A stretch of 32,000 nucleotides of DNA, from assembly GCA_000091165.1 (NCBI GenBank), contig FP565575.1, forward strand, positions 1,650,001 to 1,682,000, written 5' to 3'. The translations under genes were made by a program, and so were the position numbers. Source of the stretch: Candidatus Methylomirabilis oxygeniifera. Its GTDB lineage: Bacteria > Methylomirabilota > Methylomirabilia > Methylomirabilales > Methylomirabilaceae. Shown piece by piece: positions 1,113-32,000 of the stretch. Position 1 is the stretch's first letter, and each line of letters opens with the position of its first letter. A model generated the notes under the pieces. That model was not told where the DNA came from. It did not search any database and saw only the letters and a list, made by a program, of their open reading frames with translations.

Positions 1113-1122
1113 GGGAATAGAG

Positions 1123-2958: not shown

Positions 2959-3000
2959 CCCACCGCTCTTGATATCCGCTCCACTCGCGCTGATCGAGTA

Positions 3001-3105
3001 GAACCGGACCTGGGACGCCACACACAGCGAAGACCGATCGAATTTGCCGGTCGCCGGACCGTCAGCAGGTGAAACGGGAGAGCTTCCTGTGGCACCCGTG
3101 TAGGA
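3001..3105. repeat. Copy A of a 105-bp conserved non-coding element (partner at 27564-27668)
   Basis: Aligns by eye base for base with 27564-27668. The 3' core cgtcagcaggtgaaacg..ag.gcttcctgtggcacccgtgtagga is nearly identical. It marks the left end of the segmental duplication. Confidence 0.7.
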
Positions 3106-3140
3106 ATCCGTAGACATCTCTATCCGATAATGGTTACATT

Positions 3141-3165
3141 AGTGACAAGAAGTTCAGGCATTAAG
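3141..3165 (+). pseudogene. 3'-terminal relic of the class II cytochrome c gene (compare 28189-28215)
   Basis: agtgacaagaagttcaggcattaag matches agtgccacaagaaattcaagcattaag (..DKKFRH* versus ..CHKKFKH*). The rest of the roughly 480-bp gene is absent from this copy. Confidence 0.5.
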
Positions 3166-3194
3166 GAAAACGGCGTATCCCTGGTAAGTCGGTG

Positions 3195-3260
3195 ATGAAG
3201 TGTGTGTTCGGCCTGACCCGTCGAGACGCCTTGGGTAGTCCCTCGGCATCAACCCGATAA
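3195..3260 (+). pseudogene. Fossil of the 5' end of the radical SAM gene; now a 21-codon ORF (MKCVFGLTRRDALGSPSASTR*)
   Basis: atgaagtgtgtgttcggcc... aligns with the start of the intact radical SAM gene at 18632 (atgaagtgcgtgtttggccc...). It is frameshifted after about codon 6. Its stop TAA (3258-3260) abuts the Shine-Dalgarno sequence of the LTXXQ gene. Confidence 0.7.
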
Positions 3261-3276
3261 CAAGGAGGACATGACA

Positions 3277-4020
3277 ATGAAACTGTTGGTGGGATTGCTG
3301 GTGGCAGCTTTGCTGGTGATGGTTCCAAGAGTGCAGTCGGTGTCGGCTGAAGAGGGGTCACGGGGTATGGGTGGAATGAAAGAGTCGTGTGACAGCCGCG
3401 AGGCAGAACACGCTCAATATCGCCATTATGGCCATTACCCCTACCATCTGATCAAGTATGCGAAAGAGATCGGTCTAATACCGGACCAGGTCACCCGCAT
3501 CAAGAAGATTCGACTCGAGTTTGAGCGTGCCTGTCTTCGGGCCAGGGCTGAGATCGGCGTCAGCGACTTGGAAATTGCGGCATTGATGGACGATGAGAAG
3601 GCCACTTTCGCAACGATCGAGGCAAAAGTGAAGCAACGCGCAACCGCGGCGACCGGCCTCCAGGTTGCGGCAATCAAGGCCAAACGGGATGCCATGGCGC
3701 TCCTGACCGCCGAACAGCGTGAGAAGGATCAAGCGATCCACGAGAAGATGATGGAGCAAATGCAGGAGCGAAGAGGCGGAATGGGCGGTGGCAGCATGAT
3801 GCAGGGCGGTGGTATGGGCGGTGGCCGAATGGGCGGTGGTATGGGTGGCGGGATGATGGGCGGCGGTCGGCGTGGTGGAGGTATGGGCGGTGGTATGGGT
3901 GGTGGCATGATGCAGGGTGGCGGACAGATGGAAGGCGGGATGGATCACGATATGACGCAGGGCGACCAGGATGACTCTTCGCAACAAAAGGAATCACAGG
4001 GCGAGCACCAGGGTCATTGA
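3277..4020 (+). CDS. Periplasmic LTXXQ-motif (Spy/CpxP/ZraP, heavy-metal-resistance-like) protein with a Met/Gly-rich (MGGG)n C-terminal tail, copy 1
   Basis: AAGGAGG at 3262-3268 gives 8-nt spacing to the ATG at 3277; the ATG at 3271 is only 2 nt away. The start aligns with paralog 28358. Signal peptide MKLLVGLLVAALLVMVPRVQSVSA. LTXXQ-like motifs LIPDQ and LLTAEQREKDQ. The tail is GGMGGGSMMQGGGMGGGRMGGGMGGGMMGGG.... Confidence 0.8.
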   Translation: MKLLVGLLVAALLVMVPRVQSVSAEEGSRGMGGMKESCDSREAEHAQYRHYGHYPYHLIKYAKEIGLIPDQVTRIKKIRLEFERACLRARAEIGVSDLEIAALMDDEKATFATIEAKVKQRATAATGLQVAAIKAKRDAMALLTAEQREKDQAIHEKMMEQMQERRGGMGGGSMMQGGGMGGGRMGGGMGGGMMGGGRRGGGMGGGMGGGMMQGGGQMEGGMDHDMTQGDQDDSSQQKESQGEHQGH

Positions 4021-4104
4021 GTTCGCTACACTCCGTCTGCGTCTGCTACATGAGATAGGGAGATGTTGGCAGCCGATCGGCGCGATAGGCATAAACGACG
4101 TAGG

Positions 4105-4320
4105 ATGAGAACGTCCACACGCTTTTTGTGTGCCGCATCGACGAAAATCGTTGTGCCGGGCCTGCTCCTGGTCCATAGGTCACTGCACGAGCAGGCCCGG
4201 CACGCACATCTCCAAGACCATCCCCTCTCTCGAACATTTTCCTTCCGGTTCGTTAACTTCGCCGCCAAAAGACGTGTGGTCGAACGATGCACACCTGGAT
4301 TGAGAAACAACGATATCTGA
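4105..4320 (+). pseudogene. Decayed copy of the small membrane-anchored protein gene (intact paralog 29341-29649)
   Basis: MRTSTRFLCAASTKIVVPGLLLVH.SLHEQARHA aligns with MRKSTLFLFAVSTEVVVLGLLLVHASLSEQARHA. About 35 codons are then missing. After QDHPLS a 2-nt loss shifts the frame relative to the intact copy. Confidence 0.65.
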
Positions 4321-4568
4321 TCGACTTGACCCTCTCCTCGTTTCTAAGGCGAAAGGTCAAGCACGTCGGCCCGTTGATCCTCTACGCGCTGATGGTCTTC
4401 ATCCTCGCCTCAGTTACGTTCTTCGCCTACACGATCACAAAAGAAGCCTCGGCGAAGGAGTTCCTGGAGGATCACAAGGAAACACGCATTCTGCGGTTTG
4501 CAGACGCGACGGCAGAGGTGATCGACGCGCTCGACGCGGCCCAGCAACCGAGGGGGAGGAAGCGATGA
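4287..4568 (+). pseudogene. Truncated 5' fragment of the FtsX-type permease gene (intact paralog 29633-30877)
   Basis: The first ~55 codons (MHTWIEKQRYLIDLTLSSFLRRKVKHVGPLILYALMVFILASVTFFAYTITKEAS) match the N-terminus of the 414-aa permease. Homology stops at about 4452. The ORF then runs into unrelated sequence and stops at 4568. Confidence 0.7.
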
Positions 4569-4593
4569 AGGAGGACAAGAAAGGGAAGAATCT

Positions 4594-5769
4594 GTGACAT
4601 TTTTGACCAGGCACCGCAAGCGGCTCATTATCGCAACGCTGGTCCTCGGGCTCCTCGTCGTGGGGCTCAGGCTGACCCTGTTGGCTCCATACCGGATCGA
4701 GTCGGCCGGCCTCGAACCTCATGATCTTCAGCGCGAAGCATTCGGTGTGGGGACGGTTGAGGCGAAGGTCGTCGTCAGCATCGGCAGCAAGATCACCGGG
4801 CGCGTAACGGCGCTCAATGTTGACCAACCGGATCGGGTTCGCAAAGGGCAACTCCTTGCCACCCTCGAAAACCAGGATTTCCATGAGCAGGTGGCCCAAG
4901 CGGAGCACGACCTCGCGCGCACGGCAGCCGACCTGGTGGCCAACGACGCAGCAATCAGGCAGGCCGAAGCCAACCGGGCGCTTGCCCGGAAGAACTACGA
5001 GCGGTACCAAAGCCTCTCCCAGGAAGGGGCTGTGTCGCGGCTCGACTTCGAGCAAAAGGAGAATGAGCATATCGCCGCACAGGAGGCCGTCAATACCCTC
5101 CTCGCCCAGCGAACGTCGCTCGAGAAACAACAGAAGAAGGCATCGGCAAACCTGAATTTTGCGAAGGCCAAGCTGACCGACACCATGGTGCATGCCTCCT
5201 GCGATGGTGTGGTGGTAACCCGCGAGGTCGAGGTGGGCGATGCCGTGGTTGCGGGTGCCCCCATCTTCCGCATCGCCGACTGCCACACCATCTGGGTCCG
5301 GGCTCATGTCGATGAGACGGTCGCCGGCGCGATTGCCGTGGGCCAGCCGGCCCGGGTCATCCTGCGGTCTCGCCCTGAGCAGAGCCTCCCAGGCCAGGTC
5401 GTTCGGGTGGAGGTCGAGAGTGATCGGGTGACCGAGGAGAAGGCAGTCAATGTGACCTTCTCCGTGCCCTCCTCTATCCCACCCATTGGGGAGCAAGCGG
5501 AGGTTTACATCATCACAGGGCAGAAAACCCAGGTTTCCGCGCTGCCACAGAAGGCATTGGTCCCCATTGGGAAATCGTATGGGGTCTGGCTCATCCAGGG
5601 TGGCCGGGTTCACCTGCGCCAGGTACAGGTCGGGATCTCGGACCCCTCCGGCTGGATCGAGATTGTCGGTGGGTTGGACAGCACTGACCGGGTCGCACTT
5701 GCCCCGCCAGAGATCATGCTGCGGCTCAAGGACAACGCCCGAGTCGCGGTGAGCACGGCAGGGTCATGA
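4594..5769 (+). CDS. HlyD-family membrane fusion protein of a DevBCA/MacAB-type ABC exporter
   Basis: N-terminal TM (RLIIATLVLGLLVVGL), a long coiled-coil region and lipoyl/beta-barrel-like segments (GRVTALNVDQPDRVRKGQLLATLE ... CDGVVVTREVEVGDAV). Its stop overlaps the next start (ATGA at 5766). Confidence 0.85.
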   Translation: MTFLTRHRKRLIIATLVLGLLVVGLRLTLLAPYRIESAGLEPHDLQREAFGVGTVEAKVVVSIGSKITGRVTALNVDQPDRVRKGQLLATLENQDFHEQVAQAEHDLARTAADLVANDAAIRQAEANRALARKNYERYQSLSQEGAVSRLDFEQKENEHIAAQEAVNTLLAQRTSLEKQQKKASANLNFAKAKLTDTMVHASCDGVVVTREVEVGDAVVAGAPIFRIADCHTIWVRAHVDETVAGAIAVGQPARVILRSRPEQSLPGQVVRVEVESDRVTEEKAVNVTFSVPSSIPPIGEQAEVYIITGQKTQVSALPQKALVPIGKSYGVWLIQGGRVHLRQVQVGISDPSGWIEIVGGLDSTDRVALAPPEIMLRLKDNARVAVSTAGS

Positions 5770-6968
5770 ACCTGGCCATTCGCGACATCAGGCATAACAA
5801 AGACCGATTTATCCTCACCTGTCTGGGCCTGGGGCTGCTGATTTCCGTCGTCATGGCGATGAGCGGCATCTATGCGGGCCTCATTACCGACGCAACTGCG
5901 CTTCTCCGCCAAGTCGATGCGGACATCTGGGTAGTGGAGAAAGACACCTTCGGACCCTTCGCCGACGACTCCCGCATCCCGGAAGATCTGCAGTACAACA
6001 TCCGGTCAGTCCCCGGGGTGGTGCAAGCCGCACCCCTCTCTTTCCGCAATATGCAGCTCGATTACCACGGACGGACCCTGAGGTTCTATCTTGTCGGCTA
6101 CCGCTGGGACGGCATCGGCGGCCCGCGCCATCTGATCGCCGGCCGACAGATCGGGCGTAAGCATTACGAGCTGGTGGCTGACCAGAAGCTCGGGCTCAAT
6201 CTCGGTGACGTCCTCCATCTGGGGCTGCACGATTACACCGTGGTGGGGCTGACCATGAACATCGTCTCGCCGGCCGGCGATCCGGTCATCTACGCCTCTC
6301 TGGCCGATGCCCAGGAACTCTCATTCCAAAAGAACAATGAAGCGATTCGGAATGAGCGGGCCCGCCTGGCCGCACGCCTGAAAGACTTTGAGAAGAAAGC
6401 GCCCGGTCTCGCCCATGAGCTCGAGACTACGGTTGAAGAGATCGTAGGCAACACGCACATCGTCAACGCCGTCATCGCCAGAATCGATCGCCGAGAAACC
6501 CCCGAGGCCGTGGCCGCCAGAATCCTCCGGTGGACCCACTACACCGCCCTGACCAGTGCGCAGGAAGAGGAGATCCTCACGAAACACGTGATTGAGAAGC
6601 CCCGGCGACAGCTCGGGCTCTTCCGGATCATCCTGCTCGTCATCTCGGCTGTCATCATCGCGCTCATCGTCTACACGCTCACCATCGAGAAGATCCGGGA
6701 TCTCGCGACGTTGAAGCTGATCGGTGCGGCAAATCGTCGGATCGTCGGGCTGATCATGCAGCAATCTCTGGCGATGGGCATCCTGGGCTACCTCATCGGG
6801 GCTACCCTCATTTATGCGACCTACGATAAGTTTCCCCGGCGCATTGTCCTGCTTCCGATCGACATGGGGGTCTTGTTTATCATCGTCATCGCCCTCTGCG
6901 CAGTCGGAAGCCTCCAGGGGGTGCGGACCGCGCTGAAGGTTGATCCATCGGTCATATTGGGGACCTGA
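5766..6968 (+). CDS. FtsX/MacB-family ABC exporter permease (DevC-like)
   Basis: N-terminal TM (FILTCLGLGLLISVVMAMSGIY), a large periplasmic domain and three C-terminal TMs containing the LKLIGA motif. It lies between the MFP and the ATPase. Confidence 0.85.
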   Translation: MNLAIRDIRHNKDRFILTCLGLGLLISVVMAMSGIYAGLITDATALLRQVDADIWVVEKDTFGPFADDSRIPEDLQYNIRSVPGVVQAAPLSFRNMQLDYHGRTLRFYLVGYRWDGIGGPRHLIAGRQIGRKHYELVADQKLGLNLGDVLHLGLHDYTVVGLTMNIVSPAGDPVIYASLADAQELSFQKNNEAIRNERARLAARLKDFEKKAPGLAHELETTVEEIVGNTHIVNAVIARIDRRETPEAVAARILRWTHYTALTSAQEEEILTKHVIEKPRRQLGLFRIILLVISAVIIALIVYTLTIEKIRDLATLKLIGAANRRIVGLIMQQSLAMGILGYLIGATLIYATYDKFPRRIVLLPIDMGVLFIIVIALCAVGSLQGVRTALKVDPSVILGT

Positions 6969-6969
6969 G

Positions 6970-7656
6970 ATGGAGCCGGTAGTCCGCGTACGCAAGCTCA
7001 CGAAGGTCTATGGGAGCGGGGATACGGCGGTCACGGCTCTGGCAGACGCCGGCCTGGAAGTATTTCCCGCCGAACTTGTCGCCATCATCGGACCAAGCGG
7101 ATCGGGGAAAACGACGCTTCTGACTGCCATCGGGTGCGTCAAGGAACCCACGAGCGGCTACATCGAGATCGACGGTCGGGTGGTCTTTGACAACGGCTGG
7201 CATAAGGTGGACCTCCTCCAACTTCGCCGCGAAAAGATCGGGTTCATCCTTCAATCGTTTAACCTCCTCCCCTTCCTGACCACCCTGGAAAATGTGCTCA
7301 TCGCTATGGACCTGGTGGGCAAGCGGGGGAAAGAGGCCAGAGAGAGGGCGACCGGCTTGCTTGACTATCTGCAAGTAGCGCACCGCCTCGGTACGTACCC
7401 GGAGAGCCTTTCCGGCGGGGAGAAGCAGCGGGTCGCCATCGCCCGAGCGATGGCGAACGACCCCAAGATCCTCCTCGCGGATGAGCCTACGGCTCAACTT
7501 GATACGGAACGGGGGAAGACCGTGATGAGCCTCATGAAAAAGCTGGCCAAGGAGAAGCGCTCCGCCGTGATCGTCGTCACGCACGATCGCAGGATGGTAG
7601 AGGACTTCGATCGCATTTACATGCTGGAGGACGGGAGGATGCTGAATCATCAGTAA
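6970..7656 (+). CDS. ABC transporter ATP-binding protein (MacB/LolD/DevA-like)
   Basis: Walker A GPSGSGKTT, signature LSGGEKQRVAIARA, Walker B LLADEPTAQLD, H-loop VTHD. The ATG at 6970 directly follows the permease stop; the listed start at 6940 would overlap it. Confidence 0.9.
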   Translation: MEPVVRVRKLTKVYGSGDTAVTALADAGLEVFPAELVAIIGPSGSGKTTLLTAIGCVKEPTSGYIEIDGRVVFDNGWHKVDLLQLRREKIGFILQSFNLLPFLTTLENVLIAMDLVGKRGKEARERATGLLDYLQVAHRLGTYPESLSGGEKQRVAIARAMANDPKILLADEPTAQLDTERGKTVMSLMKKLAKEKRSAVIVVTHDRRMVEDFDRIYMLEDGRMLNHQ

Positions 7657-9992: not shown

Positions 9993-10472
9993 ATGGAAGG
10001 CCTGAAGAAGATTCGCTTGATTTTCATGCTGCTCTTCGCGATCACCGTAGCAGGAACCGTATATGCTGATTACCTGTCCGCAGAGGAGATCAAGGTTCGT
10101 CAACCAACCCAGGGTGAGATCGGCGCGATGGTCAGGTGTGCGACGATGAACGTAAAGTTTCAAGTCGCCAGCGATACGCCGGTCATCGATTACAAAGGAA
10201 AGAGCTATTTTTTCTGCTGTGAGACCTGCATGGACGCCTTCAAGAAAGATCCTGACAAGTACGCAGCAGCAACGTGGCCCATCGAGGCCTTGAAGACTCG
10301 TCAACCAACCCAGGGTGAGATCGGCGCGATGGTCAGGTGTGCGACGATGAACGTAAAGTTTCAAGTCGCCAGCGATACGCCGGTCATCGATTACAAAGGA
10401 AAGAGCTATTTTTTCTGCTGTAAGCCTTGCATGGAAACCTTTATGAGGGATCCTGATGTGTACGTAAAATGA
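9993..10472 (+). CDS. Exported protein with two tandem YHS/TRASH metal-binding domains
   Basis: SD gggaggtgag and signal peptide (IRLIFMLLFAITVAGTVYA). RCATMNVKF...VIDYKGKSYFFCC.xCMxxFxxDPDxY occurs twice and matches the YHS pattern (C-x2-M ... Y-x-G-x-x-Y-F-F-C-x2-x-C ... DP..Y). Confidence 0.8.
   Translation: MEGLKKIRLIFMLLFAITVAGTVYADYLSAEEIKVRQPTQGEIGAMVRCATMNVKFQVASDTPVIDYKGKSYFFCCETCMDAFKKDPDKYAAATWPIEALKTRQPTQGEIGAMVRCATMNVKFQVASDTPVIDYKGKSYFFCCKPCMETFMRDPDVYVK
10098..10220 (+). repeat. Intragenic direct repeat, unit 1 (123 bp, identical to 10299-10421)
   Basis: Base-by-base comparison shows no mismatch. The offset is 201 bp (67 codons). Confidence 0.95.
10299..10421 (+). repeat. Intragenic direct repeat, unit 2 (123 bp, identical to 10098-10220)
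   Basis: As for unit 1. The flanking codons of the two YHS domains are clearly diverged. Confidence 0.95.
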
Positions 10473-11145: not shown

Positions 11146-12507
11146 ATGAGGGCGGAAAAGAGCGTCCTGGCGTGCGGTGTGATGTTGGTGGTAGCCTTCG
11201 GTCCCGGCGTTGCGGGCGCCCAGGAAGAGGCGCGAGGCATGACGCTTCCCCGCGCCATCGAGATCGCCCTGGAGAAAAGCCCCCTCCTTCAGACTGCCCG
11301 ACATCGGGTAGGCGCGGCCGTCGCCGGTGTAGATCGGGCCAGGGCCGGCTTCCTCCCGAAACTGAATCTCAGCGAATCGTTCACCCGCTCCGACGATCCG
11401 GCATTTGTCTTCAGCTCGAAACTCAGCCAGGGCCGATTTGCCCAGGACGACTTCCAGATAGGGCGCCTGAACGATCCGAGTGCCATGACCAACTTCCGAA
11501 CGATCCTCGCGTTGTCCCAGCCGCTCTATACCGGCGGCAAGGTCTCGATCGGATTCGAACAGGCGAAGCTGAACCGGGAGGCGAGCGCACAGGGCCTCGA
11601 CCGAACCAGGCAGGAGGTGGTCTTCCACGTGGCCAGGGCGTACGACGGCGTCCTGCTGGCCCAGACCGATCTGGAGGTGGCAACGGCCGCGATCCAGGCG
11701 GCGGAGGCCAACCGGGATCTGGCCAGTATCCGGTTCGAGACAGGGCTGGTGGTCGAATCCGATCTGCTGTCGGCTGATGTCCGCCTGGCCCGTCTGCAGG
11801 AGCAGGCCATTACGGCCCGGAACACGCTCACCCTTGCCAAAGCCGCGTTGAACGACGTGATGGGCTTCCCGTTAGACCAGCCGTTCGACGTCACGGATCG
11901 ACTGACTCAGAGGGCAACTCGTTCTCAGGAGCTGACCGAATTGGAACGGCTTGCGCTGGAGCGGCGCCCTGACTATCGGCGGCTGGGCTTCGAGGAAGGG
12001 GCGCTCAACCGGGGGATCGGGTTGGCTCAGGCCGAATTCCTGCCGACCGTGGGCGCCACCGCAAGCTATGAGCTGAACCATCTGAAGTTCGCCGCCGATG
12101 GCCGGGACAGTTGGTTTGTCGGGGTCGCCTTTCAGTGGAATCTGTTCAACGGCCTGGAGGATCGCGCGAAGGTCGCGGAAGCCCAGGCCCACTTTTCAGA
12201 GATCCAGGCCGTTCGGACCAGGATGGCCAGCCGGATTCGACTCGAGACCAAGGAGGCGTTTCTGGCGCTCAAGACCGCCGAAGCGCGGATCGGGGTGGCG
12301 CAACGGGCGGTGGGCCAGGCCGAAGAGGCGTTGCGCATCGTGAAGGATCGGTATGAGGCGGGTCTGACCACAATCGTCGATCTCGTCGCCAGTGAGGCCG
12401 CCCTGACCCAGTCAAGAGGCAACCTCGCCCAGGCCCTGTATGATCATAACGTGGGTCTCGCAGCCCTGGAACTGGCGGTGGGAACCATCGGCAAAGAGTC
12501 ATTCTGA
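11146..12507 (+). CDS. TolC-family outer-membrane efflux protein (OEP family)
   Basis: SD ggaggtgaggg, signal peptide (ACGVMLVVAFGPGVAGA) and the two-fold repeated OEP architecture with typical LTL..A...AL..NP.L, Q...Y..G and A...L...LG motifs. It is the first gene of a TolC-MFP-RND operon. Confidence 0.85.
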   Translation: MRAEKSVLACGVMLVVAFGPGVAGAQEEARGMTLPRAIEIALEKSPLLQTARHRVGAAVAGVDRARAGFLPKLNLSESFTRSDDPAFVFSSKLSQGRFAQDDFQIGRLNDPSAMTNFRTILALSQPLYTGGKVSIGFEQAKLNREASAQGLDRTRQEVVFHVARAYDGVLLAQTDLEVATAAIQAAEANRDLASIRFETGLVVESDLLSADVRLARLQEQAITARNTLTLAKAALNDVMGFPLDQPFDVTDRLTQRATRSQELTELERLALERRPDYRRLGFEEGALNRGIGLAQAEFLPTVGATASYELNHLKFAADGRDSWFVGVAFQWNLFNGLEDRAKVAEAQAHFSEIQAVRTRMASRIRLETKEAFLALKTAEARIGVAQRAVGQAEEALRIVKDRYEAGLTTIVDLVASEAALTQSRGNLAQALYDHNVGLAALELAVGTIGKESF

Positions 12508-12526
12508 GAGGTTGGGGGAGTTCAAC

Positions 12527-26369: not shown

Positions 26370-26675
26370 ATGAGCCGTTTGCCTCTCAAATCGATTGCGT
26401 TCGCGCTGGCGGTGGCCGTGCTCCTCCTACTGGGCGCGACCACGGGCGGCGCGTTTGCGCACGAGGTCCAGCACGCGGCCCACCACACGGCCGGTATGCA
26501 TGCCACGCCCATCTGCGCGTGGATGTGCGCCACGGCCGGCGCGGTCATTACGCCAGCGATCCAACCGGCTCAGTTCACGCTTGTTCAAGACACCGTACCG
26601 CCCTTCCTCAGCCCCCTGCGCTTATCTAAGTACTTGTCGCGCCTTCAAGCGCGGGCTCCTCCCGTTCTCTCCTGA
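26370..26675 (+). CDS. Small exported His/Cys/Met-rich protein (about 101 aa), function unknown
   Basis: The ATG at 26370 follows the candidate promoter and SD. Signal peptide LKSIAFALAVAVLLLLGATTGGAFA, then HEVQHAAHHTAGMHATPICAWMCATAG. The listed start at 26244 would add a non-signal-like extension. Confidence 0.55.
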   Translation: MSRLPLKSIAFALAVAVLLLLGATTGGAFAHEVQHAAHHTAGMHATPICAWMCATAGAVITPAIQPAQFTLVQDTVPPFLSPLRLSKYLSRLQARAPPVLS

Positions 26676-26878
26676 TCCTGTCCCACGTAGACCGAGTCCG
26701 GCACCAGGAGCGGCCCTTCGCCCTGGGTCTCGGGTATCCGTTTCCATTCATGGGAGTGAGTAGCATCACATCCGGCAGCGGTGAACGGGAGTCAGTAGAA
26801 GCGCAGCACCCTGAGTCAGCAGATGCAGCTATCGAGCGAAGTCAATCCAAGGCGCAACAAATGTAAAAGGAACCAGTC

Positions 26879-27508
26879 ATGACCAATAGTGTCAGATATT
26901 TAGTCATCCTCGTATGGGGATCAGCCATACTGTTCAGTACGAACCTCCACACTGTGTGGGCAGGCGGAGGCTGTGGGGGAATGGGAATGATGGGTGGCCA
27001 CATGCACGAGGGCCACGAACAGAGTAAAACGGACGAAGACGCCGGCCATACGCTCACGCATCTCCTCACACATGGGCAGGAGATCGGCCTCACATCGGAG
27101 CAGATCGGTGAGCTGAAAACCATGCAGCTTAACCTGAGTCGAGCCCAAGCCAGAGCGGAGGCCGACATCAAAGTGGCAACCCTTGAATTAAACGCGATAG
27201 CTGAGGATGAGCGGGCGGACTCGGCAGCGATCCAGGCCAAGGTGGACCAACTCAAGAAGGCGGAGGGCCATCTTCAATCTATGGCGATCAGGTCGGGGCG
27301 AAGCGCGCTGGCGATATTGTCTCCTGAACAGCGCGAGAAAGACGACGCACTGCGGAGGGAGATGATGGAAAGCATGAAAGCGGGGCAGGACCAGCATAGC
27401 GGTGGAATGGGTGGAATGCGAGGCGGAGGGCGTATGGGTACGGGTCGCAGCAAGGGTGGGAAAGACGAAGGAGTCGGAAAAGCGGAGACGACTGCACACC
27501 GACATTAG
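26879..27508 (+). CDS. Periplasmic LTXXQ-motif protein with Met/Gly/His-rich termini, copy 3 (diverged)
   Basis: Signal/anchor (YLVILVWGSAILFSTNL), then GGGCGGMGMMGGHMHEGHE. LTXXQ-like motifs LTSEQIGELK and LSPEQREKDD. The tail is SGGMGGMRGGGRMG. Confidence 0.75.
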   Translation: MTNSVRYLVILVWGSAILFSTNLHTVWAGGGCGGMGMMGGHMHEGHEQSKTDEDAGHTLTHLLTHGQEIGLTSEQIGELKTMQLNLSRAQARAEADIKVATLELNAIAEDERADSAAIQAKVDQLKKAEGHLQSMAIRSGRSALAILSPEQREKDDALRREMMESMKAGQDQHSGGMGGMRGGGRMGTGRSKGGKDEGVGKAETTAHRH

Positions 27509-27563
27509 GCCATTATTCAATGAGTGCGGGAAGGTCGCCTGGAGTGGCCGCGCTGGTCGAACA

Positions 27564-27668
27564 GAACCAGAGCTTGGACGCCACACCCAGCAAAGACCGA
27601 TTAACCTTGTCAGCCGCCAGATCGTCAGCAGGTGAAACGATAGGGCTTCCTGTGGCACCCGTGTAGGA
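27564..27668. repeat. Copy B of the 105-bp conserved non-coding element (partner at 3001-3105)
   Basis: See copy A. It lies 67 nt upstream of the cytochrome gene. Confidence 0.7.
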
Positions 27669-27734
27669 CAAGACGGCACCACGACCCTCATGAGTCATTG
27701 AGAGCGGACACGAACAAGAGGAGAAGAAAGAACG

Positions 27735-28214
27735 ATGCACAAGATTCTGATTGCCGTTGTCACCATTACATTGCTGACGGCAGGCTTTTCCTTTGCCGTA
27801 GATTATCACCAGATGCATAATGAGATGATGCAGAAGCAAGGCGGACCAACTACAGACGGCCGGACGGAACTGCGCCATATCCCGGCCCCGATGAAGATCA
27901 TGCATAAAGCGATGATGCGGCAGCATCTGGATCATGTGAGCCAGATTACAGCGGCCTTGGCGGCCAATGATCTGAACAAGGCGGCAGAGATTGCTGTAAC
28001 GAATCTTGGCTGGAGTCAGGAACGAGCACAGGAGTGTTCAGTATTTGAACCGGTGAAAAGCGGGTCGGATTACACAACACTCGCCGCTGCCATGCACAAG
28101 AAGGCCGACGAACTGGCCGACGCTGCAAAGTCCGGATACCGGGACAAGGCCTTCCAAGCCCTGGCGGAGCTGATTCACAACTGCAATGAGTGCCACAAGA
28201 AATTCAAGCATTAA
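27735..28214 (+). CDS. Class II c-type cytochrome (cytochrome c-prime / c556-like four-helix-bundle type)
   Basis: Signal peptide (ILIAVVTITLLTAGFSFA). A single CxxCH heme motif lies at the extreme C-terminus (NCNECHKKFKH*), as in class II cytochromes c. The mature N-terminus is Met/His-rich. Confidence 0.7.
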   Translation: MHKILIAVVTITLLTAGFSFAVDYHQMHNEMMQKQGGPTTDGRTELRHIPAPMKIMHKAMMRQHLDHVSQITAALAANDLNKAAEIAVTNLGWSQERAQECSVFEPVKSGSDYTTLAAAMHKKADELADAAKSGYRDKAFQALAELIHNCNECHKKFKH

Positions 28215-28242
28215 GACAAACACACCACCCCGAGGAGAGCCG

Positions 28243-28335
28243 GTGACGAAATGTGTGTTCGGTCCGGTCCCCTCGAGATGCCTTGGGCAGTCTCTCTGCA
28301 TCGACTCGATTCCGTTCACAACCTGTAAACTGTAG
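28243..28335 (+). pseudogene. Fossil of the 5' end of the radical SAM gene; now a 30-codon ORF ([30 protein letters not shown])
   Basis: By eye, 24 of 29 aligned residues are identical to the N-terminus of the intact enzyme ([29 protein letters not shown]). The ATG has become ACG, with a GTG one codon upstream. SD gaggag is retained. It stops 22 nt before the LTXXQ start. Confidence 0.75.
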
Positions 28336-28357
28336 TCCAGAAAATGAGGACACAACG

Positions 28358-29086
28358 ATGAAACTATGGACGGGAGTACTGGCGGCAGCGTTGTTGATCG
28401 TGGCTTCTGAGGCGCGGTTAGTCATGGCCCAAGAGAGGGGACGGCATATGGGCGAGATGAAGGAGTCGTGCGAAAGCCGCGACGCAGACAGCCCTCGATA
28501 TGGCCATTACCCTCACCATCTGCTCAGGCATGCGAAAGAGATCGGCCTGGCAAAAGATCAGATCACACGACTCAAGACAATCAGACTCGATTTTGAGCGT
28601 GCCTGTCTTCGGGCCGGGGCCGAGATTCACGTGAGCGACCTGGAGATCGAAACGCTGATGGACGATGAGAAGGCCACCCTCGCAACGATCGAGGCAAAGG
28701 TCAAGCAACGCGCGACCGCGGCGACCGCACTCAGGATCGCAGCGATCAAGGCCAAACGGGACGCCATGGCGCTCCTCACTGCCGAACAGCGAGAGAAGGA
28801 TCAAGCGATACACGAGAAAATGATGCAGCAGATGGGTGGGATGGGTGGTGGAATGATGCAGGGCGGTGGGATGGGCGGTGGGCAGATGGGTGGTGGGATG
28901 AGGGGCGGCCGGAGAGGTGGCGGTGGGATGAGGCACGGCGGCGGGATGGGTGGTGGGCAGATGGGTGGTGGCATGGGTGGCGAGATGATGCAAGGTGGCG
29001 GGATGATAGATGATGGCATGATGGAGGGCGAGCAGGACGGCTCTTCGCAGCCGGAGACAACAGAGGGAGAGCATCAGGGCCATTGA
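28358..29086 (+). CDS. Periplasmic LTXXQ-motif protein with (MGGG)n tail, copy 2
   Basis: The ATG at 28358 aligns with the start of copy 1. Signal peptide MKLWTGVLAAALLIVASEA. The LLTAEQREKDQAIHEKMM core is close to copy 1. The tail is MGGMGGGMMQGGGMGGGQMGGGM.... Confidence 0.8.
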   Translation: MKLWTGVLAAALLIVASEARLVMAQERGRHMGEMKESCESRDADSPRYGHYPHHLLRHAKEIGLAKDQITRLKTIRLDFERACLRAGAEIHVSDLEIETLMDDEKATLATIEAKVKQRATAATALRIAAIKAKRDAMALLTAEQREKDQAIHEKMMQQMGGMGGGMMQGGGMGGGQMGGGMRGGRRGGGGMRHGGGMGGGQMGGGMGGEMMQGGGMIDDGMMEGEQDGSSQPETTEGEHQGH

Positions 29087-29131
29087 GTTCACGACAAACC
29101 GCCCGCCTCATGAAGCAATAAAGATGTTAGG

Positions 29132-29305
29132 AGTGTCCTGAGTCAGAAGTTCGATAAAGACGTTGACGCCCCATATGTCGTCATTCCTGCAAAAGCAGGA
29201 ATCCAGAACTCTTATTATTTCCTGGATTCCGGCTCGCGCCCGCTCTCCGGGCCTGGTCGGAATGACGTCGGGAAAATATGCAACGAATTTCAAAAACAGG
29301 ACAGT
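29132..29305. mobile_element. MITE-like 174-bp insertion with imperfect terminal inverted repeats
   Basis: It is present here but absent from the paralogous segment (around 4060-4075). The 22-nt ends match in inverted orientation at 16 of 22 positions (agtgtcctgagtcagaagttcg versus the reverse complement of cgaatttcaaaaacaggacagt). It is more AT-rich than its flanks and has internal overlapping hairpins. No second copy was seen in the window. Confidence 0.4.
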
Positions 29306-29340
29306 AGCCGATCGGGGCAATAGACATAAACAGGCGTAGC

Positions 29341-29649
29341 GTGAGAAAGTCCACACTCTTTTTATTTGCCGTATCGACGGAAGTGGTCGTGCTGGGCCTG
29401 CTCCTGGTCCATGCGTCACTGAGCGAGCAGGCCCGGCACGCCAGCCTCCGACAGAATGCCGAAATGGTGAGACGCCTCGGCCTGACCGATCTCGCCCTTT
29501 TTCCGGAGGCCCGATACACGAGACATCTGTCCCAGGCGGACTGGCATTCCGCGTTCCAGGACCATCCGCTCTCCCTCGAACACTTTCCTTCCGGTTCGTT
29601 GACGCTGCCGCCGAAAGACGTATGGTCAAACAATGCGCGCCTGGATTGA
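29341..29649 (+). CDS. Small N-terminally anchored membrane protein (102 aa), function unknown
   Basis: GTG start and TM (LFLFAVSTEVVVLGLLLV). It overlaps the FtsX permease start by 17 nt, consistent with translational coupling. A decayed paralog lies at 4105-4320. Confidence 0.6.
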   Translation: MRKSTLFLFAVSTEVVVLGLLLVHASLSEQARHASLRQNAEMVRRLGLTDLALFPEARYTRHLSQADWHSAFQDHPLSLEHFPSGSLTLPPKDVWSNNARLD

Positions 29650-30877
29650 GAAACAACGATATCTGATCGACTTTACCCTCTCCTCGTTTCTGAGGCGAAA
29701 GGTCAAGAACGTCGGCCTGTTGATCCTGTACACGCTGATCGTCTTCATCCTCGCCTCGGTCATGTTCTTCACCTACACGATCAAAAAAGAAGCGTCGGTC
29801 ATCCTTCGCGCATCCCCGGAAATCGTTGTTCAGAAGATGCTAGCGGGAAGACATGATGTATTCCCCGTCGGTTACATCGACCGCCTGAAAACCATTCGCG
29901 GGGTCGCCTCGGCGGAGGGCCGCCTCTGGGGCTATTACTTCGACCGGCATGTCGCAGCCAACTATACCTTCCTTGTCCCTTCAATGTCGGCCCTGGACGA
30001 CACTGACGACACTATTGATGCCGAAGACCAGGAGTCTCTCGAATTTGACGCCTCATCCGTCGAGCCGCTCTATCAACTCGATCTGACGGCGTTGATACCG
30101 GGCACCATCATCATCGGACAAGGAATTGCACGCATTCGACATGCAAGCGTCGGCGATTCCCTCTTCTTTCTCGCGTTCGACGGCACCGTGTTGGATTTAC
30201 GGATCGGCGGTTTTTTGTCCTCCAGATCGGAACTGGTGTCGTCCGATCTCATCTTGACGACCGAGGCGGACTTTCGACGGCTGTTTGGAATCCCTCACGA
30301 CGCCGTAACGGACGTTACCGTATCGGTTCGAAACCCGAGAGAGATTCCAACTATTGCCGGGAAGATCGCGCGACTTCTGCCCGATGCCCGGCCCATTACT
30401 CGGGACGAAATCCTGAGAACCTACGATTCAATCTTTAATTGGCGCGGGGGAATGATGCTCGTCATCCTGGCCTCCGCCGTACTCGCGTTTGTCATCTTTG
30501 CATGGGACAAGGCCTCCGGCTTGAGCGCCGGGGAGAAACAGGAAATCGGCATTCTCAAGGCCATCGGCTGGGAAACCTCGGACATTATCGAGATGAAGTT
30601 CTGGGAAGGAGCGGTGGTGTCGCTGACCGCCTTCTTCACCGGGGTCATCCTGGCCTATCTCCACGTCTTCTTTTTCTCGTCGGTGGTGTTTGAGCCGGCC
30701 CTCAAAGGATGGTCGACCCTCTACCCGCAATTTCATCTGACTCCATTTATCGACGTCGGACAACTGACCACGCTCTTCTTCCTGACGGTAGTCCCCTATA
30801 CCGCCGCCACCATCGTGCCGGTCTGGCGCGCCGCAACAATCGATCCCGATACGGCGATGCGCCGCACAGGGGAGTAA
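29633..30877 (+). CDS. FtsX/MacB-family ABC transporter permease
   Basis: N-terminal TM, an extracytoplasmic domain of about 220 aa and three C-terminal TMs containing ILKAIGW. No adjacent MFP or OMF gene. Confidence 0.85.
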   Translation: MRAWIEKQRYLIDFTLSSFLRRKVKNVGLLILYTLIVFILASVMFFTYTIKKEASVILRASPEIVVQKMLAGRHDVFPVGYIDRLKTIRGVASAEGRLWGYYFDRHVAANYTFLVPSMSALDDTDDTIDAEDQESLEFDASSVEPLYQLDLTALIPGTIIIGQGIARIRHASVGDSLFFLAFDGTVLDLRIGGFLSSRSELVSSDLILTTEADFRRLFGIPHDAVTDVTVSVRNPREIPTIAGKIARLLPDARPITRDEILRTYDSIFNWRGGMMLVILASAVLAFVIFAWDKASGLSAGEKQEIGILKAIGWETSDIIEMKFWEGAVVSLTAFFTGVILAYLHVFFFSSVVFEPALKGWSTLYPQFHLTPFIDVGQLTTLFFLTVVPYTAATIVPVWRAATIDPDTAMRRTGE

Positions 30878-30880
30878 CCG

Positions 30881-31561
30881 GTGATCGAACTGATCAACGT
30901 CACAAAAACCTTTAATGCCGGAACGCCGAGCGAATGTTCCGCTTTGAACGGGATTACCTTGACGATCAGCGACAAGATGGCGACGGTACTGGTCGGTCCA
31001 AGCGGGTCCGGCAAAACGACGCTGCTCACCATCATCGGCTGTATGGCAAGACCATCGGCCGGCCGCGTCACGCTCAACGGACGGGAAATTACCTCGCTCC
31101 CGGAACGGTTTCTGACCGAGATTCGACGCAAGACCTTCGGGTTCATTTTTCAGCAGCCGAACCTGATCAAAGGCATCACCGCGCTGGAGAATGTCATGTT
31201 GCCGGCGTACCCGGCCGGAACGGAACACGCGGCGCTCCGGGAACAGGCAATACGACTGCTCCAAGGGCTTCAGCTTTCCGAGAAGGCGGCATCGAAGGTC
31301 GAGTGGCTCTCCGGTGGGGAGGCGCAACGGGTCTCCATCGCCAGGGCGTTGATCAACAATCCGTCCGCCATTATTGCCGACGAGCCGACCGCGCACCTTG
31401 ACACAAGCTTGTCCCGCCGGTTTTTAGAGATTGTGGAGCGGTTCAAGGCGGAGGGGAAAACGATCTTGATGACCAGCCATGATCCGCTGATCTATCAGTC
31501 TCGCGTCGTCGATCGCGTGGTGCGGCTTCGAGATGGAAAGGTCGAAGAGGCAGGAGGATGA
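30881..31561 (+). CDS. ABC transporter ATP-binding protein
   Basis: Walker A GPSGSGKTT, signature LSGGEAQRVSIARA, Walker B IIADEPTAHLD, H-loop TSHD. The GTG start lies 3 nt after the permease stop. Confidence 0.9.
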   Translation: MIELINVTKTFNAGTPSECSALNGITLTISDKMATVLVGPSGSGKTTLLTIIGCMARPSAGRVTLNGREITSLPERFLTEIRRKTFGFIFQQPNLIKGITALENVMLPAYPAGTEHAALREQAIRLLQGLQLSEKAASKVEWLSGGEAQRVSIARALINNPSAIIADEPTAHLDTSLSRRFLEIVERFKAEGKTILMTSHDPLIYQSRVVDRVVRLRDGKVEEAGG

Positions 31562-32000
31562 TTCTCCACCCGGCAGTCATCGCCAATGTCGTGTCCTCTT
31601 TGATTATCAGCGTCACGATCGTGTATGCGGCGGTGTACGGCGTACAGATTCTGTTGAAGTGGGATCTTCAAAGCGGCGATGAACTTCAGTTGCGTCTCGA
31701 ACGACGGACGTATCTGATTTCAACCCTGCTGAGCTTTATTTTAGTCCTGGAGCTGACGTCGCTGTTTCTCTTCGTCTTTACCGCGGATACCCTCTGCCCG
31801 CTCTTCGTCGGCGCCATGTGCGCGGCTGGAACGCTGAACGTGAATGCGTTCGGCTACCCCACCCTGTTGATGAAAATGGTCAATTTTCTTCTCGCCGGGC
31901 TCTGGCTTGTCCTCAATTATGCCGACAACCAGGCGTACGATTATCCGCTGATCAAAAAAAAATATCTGCTGCTGGCCGTCATCGCGCCGCTGAGCGTCCT
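31558..32000 (+). CDS. Polytopic membrane protein, function unknown (3' end outside the window)
   Basis: The ATG overlaps the ATPase stop (ATGA), and frame 1 stays open to the window end. My translation is MILHPAVIANVVSSLIISVTIVYAAVYGV...LLSFILVLELTSLFLFVFTADTLCPLFVGAMCAAGT...MVNFLLAGLWLVL. It has at least 3 hydrophobic helices, with a Cys pair (C-x8-C) inside one of them. Confidence 0.6.
   Translation, partial: MILHPAVIANVVSSLIISVTIVYAAVYGVQILLKWDLQSGDELQLRLERRTYLISTLLSFILVLELTSLFLFVFTADTLCPLFVGAMCAAGTLNVNAFGYPTLLMKMVNFLLAGLWLVLNYADNQAYDYPLIKKKYLLLAVIAPLSV

Follow-up and report, generated by a model that had tools for sequence, protein, structure and literature searches.

A close described counterpart of the locus considered here is the NosDFYL machinery of Pseudomonas stutzeri (PDB 7osf-7osj, 7znq), which delivers copper to N2O reductase. 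NosL passes copper to NosD of the NosDFY ABC complex, whose cytoplasmic ATPase drives periplasmic copper hand-over and not transmembrane transport (PMC13068155). Both systems contain a NosL-family Cu(I) chaperone, and an ATP-driven hand-over is also proposed here. In contrast to NosDFYL, the present operon lacks NosD, NosF and NosY (which have a different ABC fold) and NosZ. Its permease is of the FtsX/MacB type, its NosL carries a cleavable signal peptide without a lipobox, an outer-membrane barrel bears a further NosL domain as a fusion, and two additional families without assigned function are present, the anchor protein and Mem331. The source organism, Methylomirabilis oxyfera, is devoid of nosDFYZ (PMC3198195).

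A similar parts list is found in the fetMP-fetABCDEF (P19) system of Campylobacter jejuni, where metal acquisition depends on all of its parts, namely a metal-binding protein of the periplasm, a Cys-rich membrane protein with eight helices, an ABC permease/ATPase of unknown substrate and periplasmic thioredoxins (PMC6083913, PMC10783030). The likeness of the two systems, which includes an eight-helix protein with conserved periplasmic Cys motifs, is architectural; FetA has DUF2318 and YHS domains, neither of which is matched by Mem331. Unlike the operon described here, fetMP-fetABCDEF is an iron system with an Ftr1-type permease and without NosL.

The structural neighbours of the permease are type VII ABC proteins (MacB, LolCDE, FtsEX, HrtBA, YbbAP, BceAB), with which it has in common an FtsX domain of four helices, a large periplasmic domain that follows the first of these helices and precedes the second, and an ATPase resembling LolD/FtsE. 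No described member has a partner set like that of anchor, Mem331 and NosL. Finally, two genes upstream of the operon resemble the ZraP/Spy/CpxP proteins (PF13801) in their LTXXQ motifs and their Gly/Met/His-rich tails, of which E. coli ZraP has a similar one. ZraP-like proteins are tied to metal excess in E. coli. The (MGGG)n tails of the present proteins are much longer, and their linkage to an ABC operon is confined to NC10 and one Nitrospirales MAG.

Organization of the locus

The window, i. e. the whole analysed stretch of 32,000 nucleotides, stems from a contig of Candidatus Methylomirabilis oxyfera (source-contig locus L001). An ORF check of 26370-32000 recovered all eight co-directional genes that an earlier note on this DNA had listed (Table 1). 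The short gaps and overlaps claimed there are exact for the tightly packed genes 5-8: the anchor and FtsX genes overlap by 17 nt, 3 nt separate permease and ATPase (TAA-CCG-GTG), and the ATPase and Mem331 genes share an ATGA overlap. Genes 1-5, in contrast, are spaced by 203, 226, 143 and 254 nt.

Table 1. Features of the locus, in window coordinates.
Feature	Position	Strand	Basis
Small exported His/Cys/Met protein, 101 aa	26370-26675	+	ORF; signal peptide, then HEVQHAAHH...CAWMC
LTXXQ/ZraP-like periplasmic protein 'a', 209 aa, Gly/Met/His-rich ends	26879-27508	+	LTSEQ and LSPEQ motifs
Cytochrome c′-like (class II) haem protein, 159 aa	27735-28214	+	PF01322; C-terminal CNECH
LTXXQ/ZraP-like protein 'b', long (MGGG)n tail	28358-29086	+	Weak PF13801; coding repeats
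Single-pass anchor protein, 102 aa, opens the conserved core	29341-29649	+	No Pfam family; synteny
FtsX-family permease, 414 aa, type VII ABC, LolC/MacB-like periplasmic domain (predicted)	29633-30877	+	PF02687
ABC ATPase, 226 aa, LolD/FtsE/MacB-type	30881-31561	+	PF00005 (ABC_tran)
Mem331, N-terminal 147 residues; eight-helix membrane protein	31558-32000	+	331 aa in source contig
Decayed second copy of the locus	2986-4573	+	blastn segments, translations

The window end cuts the Mem331 gene after 147 of its 331 codons (full-length gene, L001 11926-12921). In the source contig, the operon runs on in the order anchor, FtsX, ABC ATPase, Mem331, soluble NosL and a NosL-outer-membrane-barrel fusion. 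Genes 5-8 (29341-32000) are the first four genes of this conserved, translationally coupled operon, and the eight genes are not one conserved system but a core operon plus lineage-restricted add-ons. The earlier statement that the motor has neither a membrane-fusion nor an outer-membrane partner stands for the former; for the latter it is true inside the window only, the last gene of the operon being the NosL-barrel fusion.

The conserved core operon

The synteny sample comprised 80 loci from other species, with neighbour counts given over 84 loci. Anchor, FtsX and ABC genes lie immediately upstream of Mem331 in 65 of 68 evaluable loci, and the anchor gene directly precedes the FtsX gene in 66 of 68. 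NosL adjoins the module in 57 of 60 loci (28 downstream, 29 upstream), and the order NosL-anchor-FtsX-ABC-Mem is kept even around Mem331 homologues of only 30-34% identity. The core operon is widely conserved and pairs a putative ATP-driven envelope motor with the copper chaperone NosL and a new Cys/His-rich membrane protein; carriers include Methylomicrobium lacus, Methylobacter tundripaludum and Pelotalea chapellei. The gene combination had been suspected in the earlier note to be undescribed, and a full-text literature search found no published description.

No Pfam family matched the anchor protein or five of its homologues, whose conserved motif reads LTDLxLFxEAxYTRH...FQDxP...EHFPxG. The permease matches PF02687 with 31.7 bits and reaches 45.9 bits against TIGR02212 (lolCE; cut-off 362), which places it outside that family. 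Its ATPase partner, with intact Walker A, Q-loop, LSGGE signature, Walker B and H-loop, matches PF00005 with 108.8 bits and the FtsE, LolD and MacB models with 175-180 bits, each under its cut-off. The pair scores far under the curated cut-offs for LolCE, LolD, FtsE and MacB. A Foldseek search with the AlphaFold2 model of the permease (pLDDT 65.8) gave LolE, LolC and MacB as top matches, besides HrtB and YbbP; the periplasmic domain aligns to those of LolC/LolE with a TM-score of 0.61 (target-normalised), and identity to solved structures, of which LolF, LolC and LolE are nearest, is 10-18%. The permease is therefore predicted to adopt a LolC/MacB-type (type VII) fold outside the Lol, MacB and FtsEX families, which agrees with the MacB/FtsEX-style motor originally proposed. 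Conserved Cys, His or Met residues, and hence conserved metal ligands, are missing from its periplasmic domain. Genes for an adaptor or membrane-fusion protein, LolA/LolB, a kinase or a hydrolase activator were not found in the neighbourhood.

Mem331 represents a family of 965 clusters at 50% identity, and none of 92 members matched Pfam or NCBIfam. Its AlphaFold2 model is confident (pLDDT 88.7, pTM 0.88) and has no fold match in the PDB. Invariant residues are M87-C88, C168-C169 and H250-H251-C252-x-x-C255 (HHCxxC), the latter two motifs falling beyond the window end. The "Cys pair" first assigned to this protein holds only in part, as its first member, C80, is conserved in only 77%, and M87-C88 is the invariant motif inside the window. 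All three motifs sit in K/R-poor loops and are predicted to face the periplasm, based on the positive-inside rule and the AlphaFold model only.

The soluble NosL matches PF05573 with 122 bits. NosL177 aligns with the NosL of the P. stutzeri NosDFYL structures (E 1e-9), and the CxxCGM and GxMG motifs are present in both; C47, C50, M52, M130 and H150 are each at least 90% conserved. Frequent neighbours are a TlpA-like thioredoxin (49 of 84 loci) and a DsbD_2-cupredoxin fusion (about 24 loci), and in other genomes also cupredoxin alone, SCO1/SenC and CopC/CopD.

Proposed function

The core operon may encode a NosL-centred Cu(I) relay that works in the periplasm and is driven by ATP. We consider this reading somewhat probable; copper as substrate, topology, physical complex, mechanism and direction are all deduced from the observed gene content, synteny, family assignments, residue conservation and predicted folds. 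NosL-family proteins would pass Cu(I) between the barrel in the outer membrane and an inner-membrane complex, where cytoplasmic ATP hydrolysis by the type VII motor (FtsX and ATPase), probably joined by the periplasmic domain of the anchor, would force a periplasmic hand-over. A putative thiolate/imidazole site of Mem331 at the periplasmic face could serve as acceptor or conduit. A Cu(I)-type role had been suggested before and is still the best-supported reading, yet it now rests on NosL, because NosL and not the LTXXQ proteins is the conserved partner. Conceivably, those members of the NosL family that are encoded away from nos clusters bind a different thiophilic metal.

By analogy with the passage from NosL to NosDFY, we tentatively favour that copper moves inward, either to be acquired or to reach copper enzymes. 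Several points speak against the proposed relay, namely that the known type VII ABC systems act outward or within the periplasm and not as importers, the periplasmic domain of FtsX without conserved ligands, the local context in Methylomirabilis, where uptake-type genes (TonB-dependent receptors, ZIP) are mixed with efflux-type ones (RND, CDF), and the metal-excess link of the ZraP-like proteins.

Alternatively, the operon could serve Cu/Ag detoxification, with the motor charging NosL with Cu(I) from the periplasm or the membrane and the NosL-barrel expelling it, much as in a Lol-like relay that runs outward and needs no membrane-fusion protein. The known MacB-type systems work outward, the soluble NosL and the outer-membrane NosL domain mirror the homologous pair LolA/LolB, and in Methylomirabilis the operon is found among RND, CDF and ZraP-like genes. 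We nevertheless regard this as rather unlikely, as resistance genes are not near most loci of other phyla, TlpA, SCO1 and cupredoxin neighbours typify copper-enzyme biogenesis, and one copy in the M. oxyfera genome was allowed to decay.

A periplasmic thiol/disulfide or electron relay, in which Mem331 and thioredoxin/DsbD-like partners move reducing power, or a relay whose cargo is another thiophilic species, is quite unlikely. It would make use of the five invariant Cys in the predicted periplasm-facing loops of Mem331 and of the frequent TlpA-like and DsbD_2 neighbours, and has a precedent in the Fet model, where the ABC transporter is proposed to be a route for reducing power (PMC10783030). 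The NosL partner, however, is near-universal and thioredoxin is not, and the paired His beside CxxC together with the invariant Met-Cys of Mem331 seem better suited to metal ligation than to pure redox chemistry.

Accessory genes and the second copy

Genes 1-4 are best explained as periplasmic metal or stress proteins whose recruitment to this site, within a larger island for metal homeostasis, is restricted to NC10 and some Nitrospirota. The small His/Cys protein belongs to no Pfam or NCBIfam family; a paralogue of 110 aa with VCAWVH is encoded downstream of the operon (L001 15012-15344). The cytochrome c′-like protein barely passes PF01322 (26.9 bits, cut-off 26.5) and matches solved cytochromes c′ weakly in sequence (E 0.5). 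Neither protein was found in the other loci except that of Nitrospira defluvii (L004), where a homologue of the former (35% identity) is encoded between the NosL and NosL-barrel genes and a cytochrome-like match (28%) lies about 9 kb from the module.

Proteins 'a' and 'b' score 20.5 and 17.5 bits against PF13801 (Metal_resist), below the cut-off of 29.2. An orthologue of 'a' directly precedes the anchor gene in the Nitrospirales MAG (L087), and its N-terminus backs the start at 26879; the public gene call begins 102 nt later. The (MGGG)n stretches of 'b' are genuine tandem coding repeats, as had been noted, and in L085 and L086 the anchor or FtsX gene is preceded by an orthologue of 'b'.

The duplication formerly placed at 3001-4452 is real and longer (2986-4573), but a decayed remnant and not a working duplicate. 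Only the LTXXQ-b paralogue (3271-4020) is intact, while the ORF at 4287-4568 is an in-frame deletion chimera of the FtsX N-terminus and the NosL C-terminus. The blastn segments of the second copy (72-88% identity) correspond to 27549-27668, 28195-29109, 29306-29441, 29555-29798 and the NosL 3' end (L001 13349-13479). The duplicated unit reached from the spacer (27549-27668) 5' of the cytochrome c′ gene as far as NosL and included LTXXQ-b. At the matching genomic position, M. lanthanidiphila (L085) has an intact operon. The duplication speaks for a unit within Methylomirabilis only, and the cytochrome gene is missing from the copy.

The earlier note had taken all eight genes as one system, with the ABC/FtsX motor working on, or together with, Met-rich LTXXQ chaperones. 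Indeed, three Methylomirabilis lineages, both paralogous copies of M. oxyfera and the one Nitrospirales MAG have an LTXXQ gene directly 5' of the anchor gene, and LTXXQ-b was part of the ancestral duplicated unit. In none of the other loci was an LTXXQ homologue found beside the module, neither the second copy nor the loci of Methylomirabilis relatives have the cytochrome c′ gene, and 254 nt separate LTXXQ-b from the tightly coupled operon. By the standard of the earlier note itself, the lack of conserved co-occurrence of the module with the LTXXQ and cytochrome genes refutes the eight-gene version; a partnership of motor and LTXXQ proteins is very unlikely. Least credible of all is that the pair simply belongs to a type VII system already characterised (LolCDE, MacAB-TolC, FtsEX or a peptide module of the Bce type), as suggested by the nearest solved relatives and by public annotations of the permease as a "lipoprotein release" or "antimicrobial peptide" permease, given the low identities, the curated models all missed by far and a gene neighbourhood that holds, in place of the usual partners, NosL, the anchor and Mem331 as fixed ones.

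The gene module and its boundaries

Eight co-directional genes that an earlier note had grouped into one candidate envelope system were borne out by ORF listing and translation (see Table). The protein labels given there match the Pfam and NCBIfam scans, and the Gly/Met-rich tails of the LTXXQ proteins are genuine tandem coding repeats. The junctions had been described exactly: the anchor and FtsX genes share 17 nt, the ATPase gene has a GTG start 3 nt past the permease TAA, and the last gene, preceded by GGAGGA, begins in an ATGA overlap. Short gaps throughout, as also claimed, are not found for genes 1-5, which are spaced by 143-254 nt; tight coupling is therefore seen only in genes 5-8. Promoter and terminator scans gave nothing better than shuffled sequence, and an Rfam scan found nothing. 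Public annotations of the proteins are generic ('hypothetical protein', 'lipoprotein release permease').

The last gene encodes an eight-helix membrane protein of 331 aa (Mem331). Only 19 nt downstream of it, just outside the window, lies a gene for a 177-aa NosL-family protein (NosL177; PF05573, 122.4 bits). This is overlapped by 4 nt by a likewise external gene for a 458-aa protein, termed NosL-barrel, which joins a NosL domain at the N-terminus (PF05573, 70.2 bits) to an outer-membrane barrel at the C-terminus (PF13557). Beyond these lie a gene 1 paralogue and genes for a TonB-dependent receptor, an unknown protein of 288 aa and a small metal-binding protein of family PF16785.

Mem331 has thousands of homologues (6060 matches; 965 clusters at 50% identity) and occurs in at least 512 species-representative genomes. 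When 14 proteins of the M. oxyfera locus were compared with 80 of the Mem331 loci by tblastn, anchor, FtsX and ABC genes were found immediately 5' of Mem331 in 65 of 68 evaluable loci, and NosL adjoined in 57 of 60. The side on which NosL is located varies: in Methylococcales, Nitrosomonas, Nitrospira and NC10 it is downstream, with the NosL-barrel fusion coming after it, and in Geobacteraceae, other Desulfobacterota and Thermodesulfovibrionales it is upstream. Even around three Mem331 homologues with 30-34% identity, the order NosL-anchor-FtsX-ABC-Mem is retained. LTXXQ homologues, on the other hand, were found next to the module in Methylomirabilis and a single Nitrospirales MAG only. Outside the source genome, tblastn gave one weak match each for the His/Cys protein (35%, beside the module) and the cytochrome-like protein (28%, ~9 kb from the module), both in N. 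defluvii. The eight genes are therefore a conserved core of five to six genes with add-ons confined to a few lineages, not one conserved system as had been supposed, and the presumed link of the LTXXQ proteins and the cytochrome to the motor is lineage-specific at best. The boundaries of the system had been drawn wrongly because its key partner NosL lies beyond the window.

A TlpA-like thioredoxin is a frequent accessory gene (49/84 loci), as is a conserved fusion protein of ~435 aa encoded upstream of the anchor gene in Methylococcales (L003-L032). The latter combines a DsbD_2 membrane domain (FHCVGMCGP, ICGPL) with a C-terminal cupredoxin_1 domain (WSCWMGM); in Nitrosomonas the cupredoxin domain occurs alone. 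In one 30%-identity version of the module (L088), two NosL genes are directly preceded by genes for SCO1/SenC and for a protein of 552 aa that contains a c-type cytochrome domain, a loose echo of the cytochrome beside the M. oxyfera operon.

Table. Features of the module, its decayed copy and their surroundings. L-numbers denote the source locus (L001) and homologous loci.
Feature	Sequence	Coordinates	Strand	Remarks
Eight-gene stretch	window	26370-32000	+	
Small His/Cys protein (gene 1)	window	26370-26675	+	no Pfam or NCBIfam family
LTXXQ-a and LTXXQ-b (genes 2, 4)	window		+	PF13801 (Metal_resist) weak, 20.5 and 17.5 bits, under the 29.2 cut-off; LTXXQ motifs visible in sequence
Cytochrome c′-like protein (gene 3)	window		+	PF01322 a marginal pass, 26.9 vs 26.5 bits; CNECH 6 residues from C-terminus; weak sequence match to solved c′ proteins (E 0.5)
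Anchor (gene 5)	window	29341-29649	+	no Pfam or NCBIfam family
FtsX permease (gene 6)	window	29633-30877	+	PF02687, 31.7 bits vs 25.5 cut-off; C-terminal FtsX four-helix domain present
ABC ATPase (gene 7)	window		+	ABC_tran, 108.8 bits; full set of catalytic motifs
Mem331 (gene 8)	window		+	no Pfam or NCBIfam family; truncated by window end
Sigma-54 promoter-like element	window	28285-28300		GGGCAGTCTCTCTGCA; ~55 nt upstream of LTXXQ-b
Weaker counterpart	window	3233		before LTXXQ paralogue
TonB-dependent receptor (C-terminal part), then PepSY_TM protein	window	75-2784		directly upstream of decayed copy
Decayed copy	window	2986-4573		
LTXXQ paralogue	window	3271-4020		sole intact gene of decayed copy
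FtsX-NosL chimera	window	4287-4568		in-frame, 93 aa
HlyD/MacB/ABC set	window	4594-7656		separate from the module
Tandem YHS protein	window	9993-10472		exported, 159 aa; two near-identical YHS/TRASH repeats of ~60 aa each; local GC dip (0.515 vs ~0.60)
Small His/Cys protein	L001	15012-15344		
Small His/Cys protein	L085 (M. lanthanidiphila)	2166-2465		
Small His/Cys protein	L004 (N. defluvii)	12241-12519		
SCO1/SenC and 552-aa cytochrome-domain protein	L088	677-2898		

The ABC motor and its membrane partners

The motor of the operon is a member of the type VII ABC superfamily that belongs to none of its described subfamilies. An AlphaFold2 model of the permease is of moderate quality overall (pLDDT 65.8), with values of 70-90 over most of the periplasmic domain except for a disordered acidic insertion. 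This insertion (residues ~117-155, pLDDT 26-31) is present in the type found in M. oxyfera and Methylococcales and is missing in the 375-378-aa homologues of the Desulfobacterota type. Foldseek retrieved LolE, LolC, MacB, HrtB and YbbP as structural neighbours at 10-18% sequence identity, and the large Porter/Sabre-type periplasmic domain between helices 1 and 2 matches LolC/LolE with a target-normalised TM of 0.61 (probability 1.00). Among homologues, this domain contains no conserved Cys, His or Met, which fits a force-transmitting role better than metal binding.

Assignment to a described subfamily fails on both profile scores and context. FtsEX is rejected by TIGR02673 (180.1 vs a cut-off of 264.85) and by the fixed neighbours NosL, anchor and Mem331; LolCDE by TIGR02212 (45.9 vs 362.45), TIGR02211 (179 vs 307.75) and gene context; and MacB by curated cut-offs that are far from reached as well as by gene context. 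The HlyD-type membrane-fusion adaptor gene expected next to a MacAB-TolC tripartite pump was found neither in the operon nor in the Pfam-annotated homologous loci.

The anchor is predicted to be a signal-anchored protein of ~100 aa; it has a periplasmic motif that is conserved, and it matches no known family. Apparent anchor-FtsX fusion proteins were rejected as ORF-extension artefacts. For Mem331, a confident AlphaFold2 model (pLDDT 88.7, pTM 0.88) shows eight long helices whose connecting loops hold short elements, and Foldseek matched it to no PDB structure (best E 0.17, TM ~0.2). A Pfam search of 92 family members likewise matched no family. Lys/Arg residues are abundant in loops 1, 3, 5 and 7 (means 1.7-2.8) and scarce in loops 2 and 6 (0.02 and 0.65), while loop 4 (31 residues) has a Lys/Arg mean of 1.7 with acidic residues outnumbering basic ones. 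The positive-inside rule would thus place all of the invariant M87-C88, C168-C169 and H250-H251-C252-P-F-C255 on the periplasmic side. An ATPase-Mem331 fusion (P0162, 561 aa, from an ENA metagenome contig) would indicate direct contact of the two proteins if real; it was discounted because it stems from a single contig and, given the ATGA overlap, one base error would fuse the genes.

Relationship to NosDFYL and fetMP-fetABCDEF

The CxxCGM and GxMG motifs of NosL are at least 90% conserved and can be aligned with those of NosL in the P. stutzeri NosDFYL structures. NosL177 and its Pelotalea homologue are predicted to carry cleavable signal peptides without a lipobox. NosL has a single characterised role: it passes Cu(I) on to an ABC complex, at the periplasmic part of the latter, and the complex then metallates NosZ (PMC13068155). 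The module resembles this system in its NosL-family chaperones, two of them here, and would work in a similar way, but neither NosD, NosF/NosY nor the client NosZ was found in the 21-kb source locus. As M. oxyfera lacks nosDFYZ altogether (PMC3198195), its NosL must serve something else, and the fixed neighbours are the obvious candidates. The parts list also recalls fetMP-fetABCDEF, where metal uptake requires each of the following: a metal-binding protein in the periplasm, a Cys-rich membrane protein with eight helices, an ABC transporter and thioredoxins. The operon is nevertheless a member of neither group; for the DUF2318 and YHS domains of FetA, none of the 92 Mem331 members gave a Pfam hit at E up to 1.

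Literature searches on NosL pairings and on the Campylobacter fetMP/P19 analogue retrieved no description of a NosL-FtsX/ABC-membrane-protein module. The suspicion that an unrecognised combination of genes is present was well founded: the module is real and apparently undescribed. It includes two protein families that are unclassified and probably belongs with the ABC-driven metallochaperone machineries of the periplasm, and the copper-type chemistry guessed in the earlier note is plausible.

Proposed function and direction of copper flow

We infer a mechanism in which the type VII ABC motor and the anchor could power, through ATP, an exchange of Cu(I) between NosL and the Mem331 Cys/His site. 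NosL-barrel would tie this exchange to the outer membrane, and the thioredoxin and DsbD-like partners may hold periplasmic thiols reduced. Copper could conceivably flow outward, in detoxification: the operon here sits among efflux genes, and the type VII ABC systems known to us act outward. We favour inward flow, for acquisition or enzyme metallation, by analogy with the hand-over from NosL to NosDFY and with the architecture of fetMP-fetABCDEF, and because the neighbours TlpA, SCO1, cupredoxin and CopCD are of the biogenesis type.

To our knowledge, copper acquisition and routing for copper-dependent enzymes are largely unknown in most gammaproteobacterial methanotrophs, ammonia oxidisers and NC10 bacteria. 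The module, found in at least 512 species genomes, is a concrete and testable candidate for this role. Between Methylococcales, Nitrosomonas, Nitrospira and Methylomirabilis, its proteins share 62-77% identity, and such striking conservation across unrelated methane and nitrogen oxidisers makes copper supply to copper monooxygenases worth testing. In its most far-reaching form, which we regard as rather unlikely in full, the proposal is an envelope-spanning Cu(I) acquisition pathway from NosL-barrel via soluble NosL to the motor with its new-fold Cys/His membrane protein. One variant would have spread horizontally among methanotrophs, nitrifiers and NC10 and would provide copper for enzymes that include the particulate methane monooxygenase and the ammonia monooxygenase. 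The proposed function of the module would add the loading of metal chaperones to the tasks of type VII ABC 'mechanotransmission' motors. The module also accounts for nosL genes earlier taken as denitrification leftovers.

Decayed duplicate and genomic surroundings

The decayed second copy aligns with the main locus in five collinear pieces of 72-88% identity, the last of which has its counterpart beyond the window, at the 3' end of NosL. The cytochrome c′ gene has been lost from it, as have the central part of the anchor gene and everything from about FtsX codon 56 through about NosL codon 140. The resulting chimera joins an FtsX N-terminus (~55 aa) to a NosL C-terminus (~40 aa), and the 10-nt overlap of the two blastn segments at the junction suggests a deletion of ~3.2 kb at short microhomology ('KEAS/DEAS'). 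At the equivalent position, M. lanthanidiphila has an intact operon with ZIP upstream and an HlyD/MacB/ABC set and ECF sigma genes downstream; M. oxyfera therefore once had two full copies and is now losing one. The argument that the locus forms a unit is thereby supported for the stretch from LTXXQ-b to NosL, and only within the genus Methylomirabilis.

The remainder of the window forms an island of metal-homeostasis genes. Besides a TonB-dependent receptor with a PepSY_TM protein, a pairing that recalls copper-receptor loci such as Pseudomonas oprC, it encodes the HlyD/MacB/ABC set, an ECF sigma/anti-sigma pair, the tandem YHS protein, an OEP/adaptor/RND set, two ZIP transporters and a CDF transporter. 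The small exported His/Cys proteins near the module form a family without a Pfam or NCBIfam match, and an R-(A/S)-P-P motif was read in the C-terminal region of three copies.

Regulation

When upstream regions were aligned across Methylococcales, little of informative value emerged except for one sigma-54-like -24/-12 element (GGCAT-N5-xTGC). It is found in 17 loci (L005-L037), in most cases ~180-240 nt before the anchor gene; the background frequency is 0.02 per 400 nt. In Pelotalea, an NtrC-type activator and a hybrid kinase are encoded directly upstream of the operon, which together with this element suggests signal-dependent expression. The sigma-54 promoter-like sequence before LTXXQ-b in M. 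oxyfera has the correct GG/GC spacing and matches 8/11 consensus positions; E. coli zraP is sigma-54 dependent.
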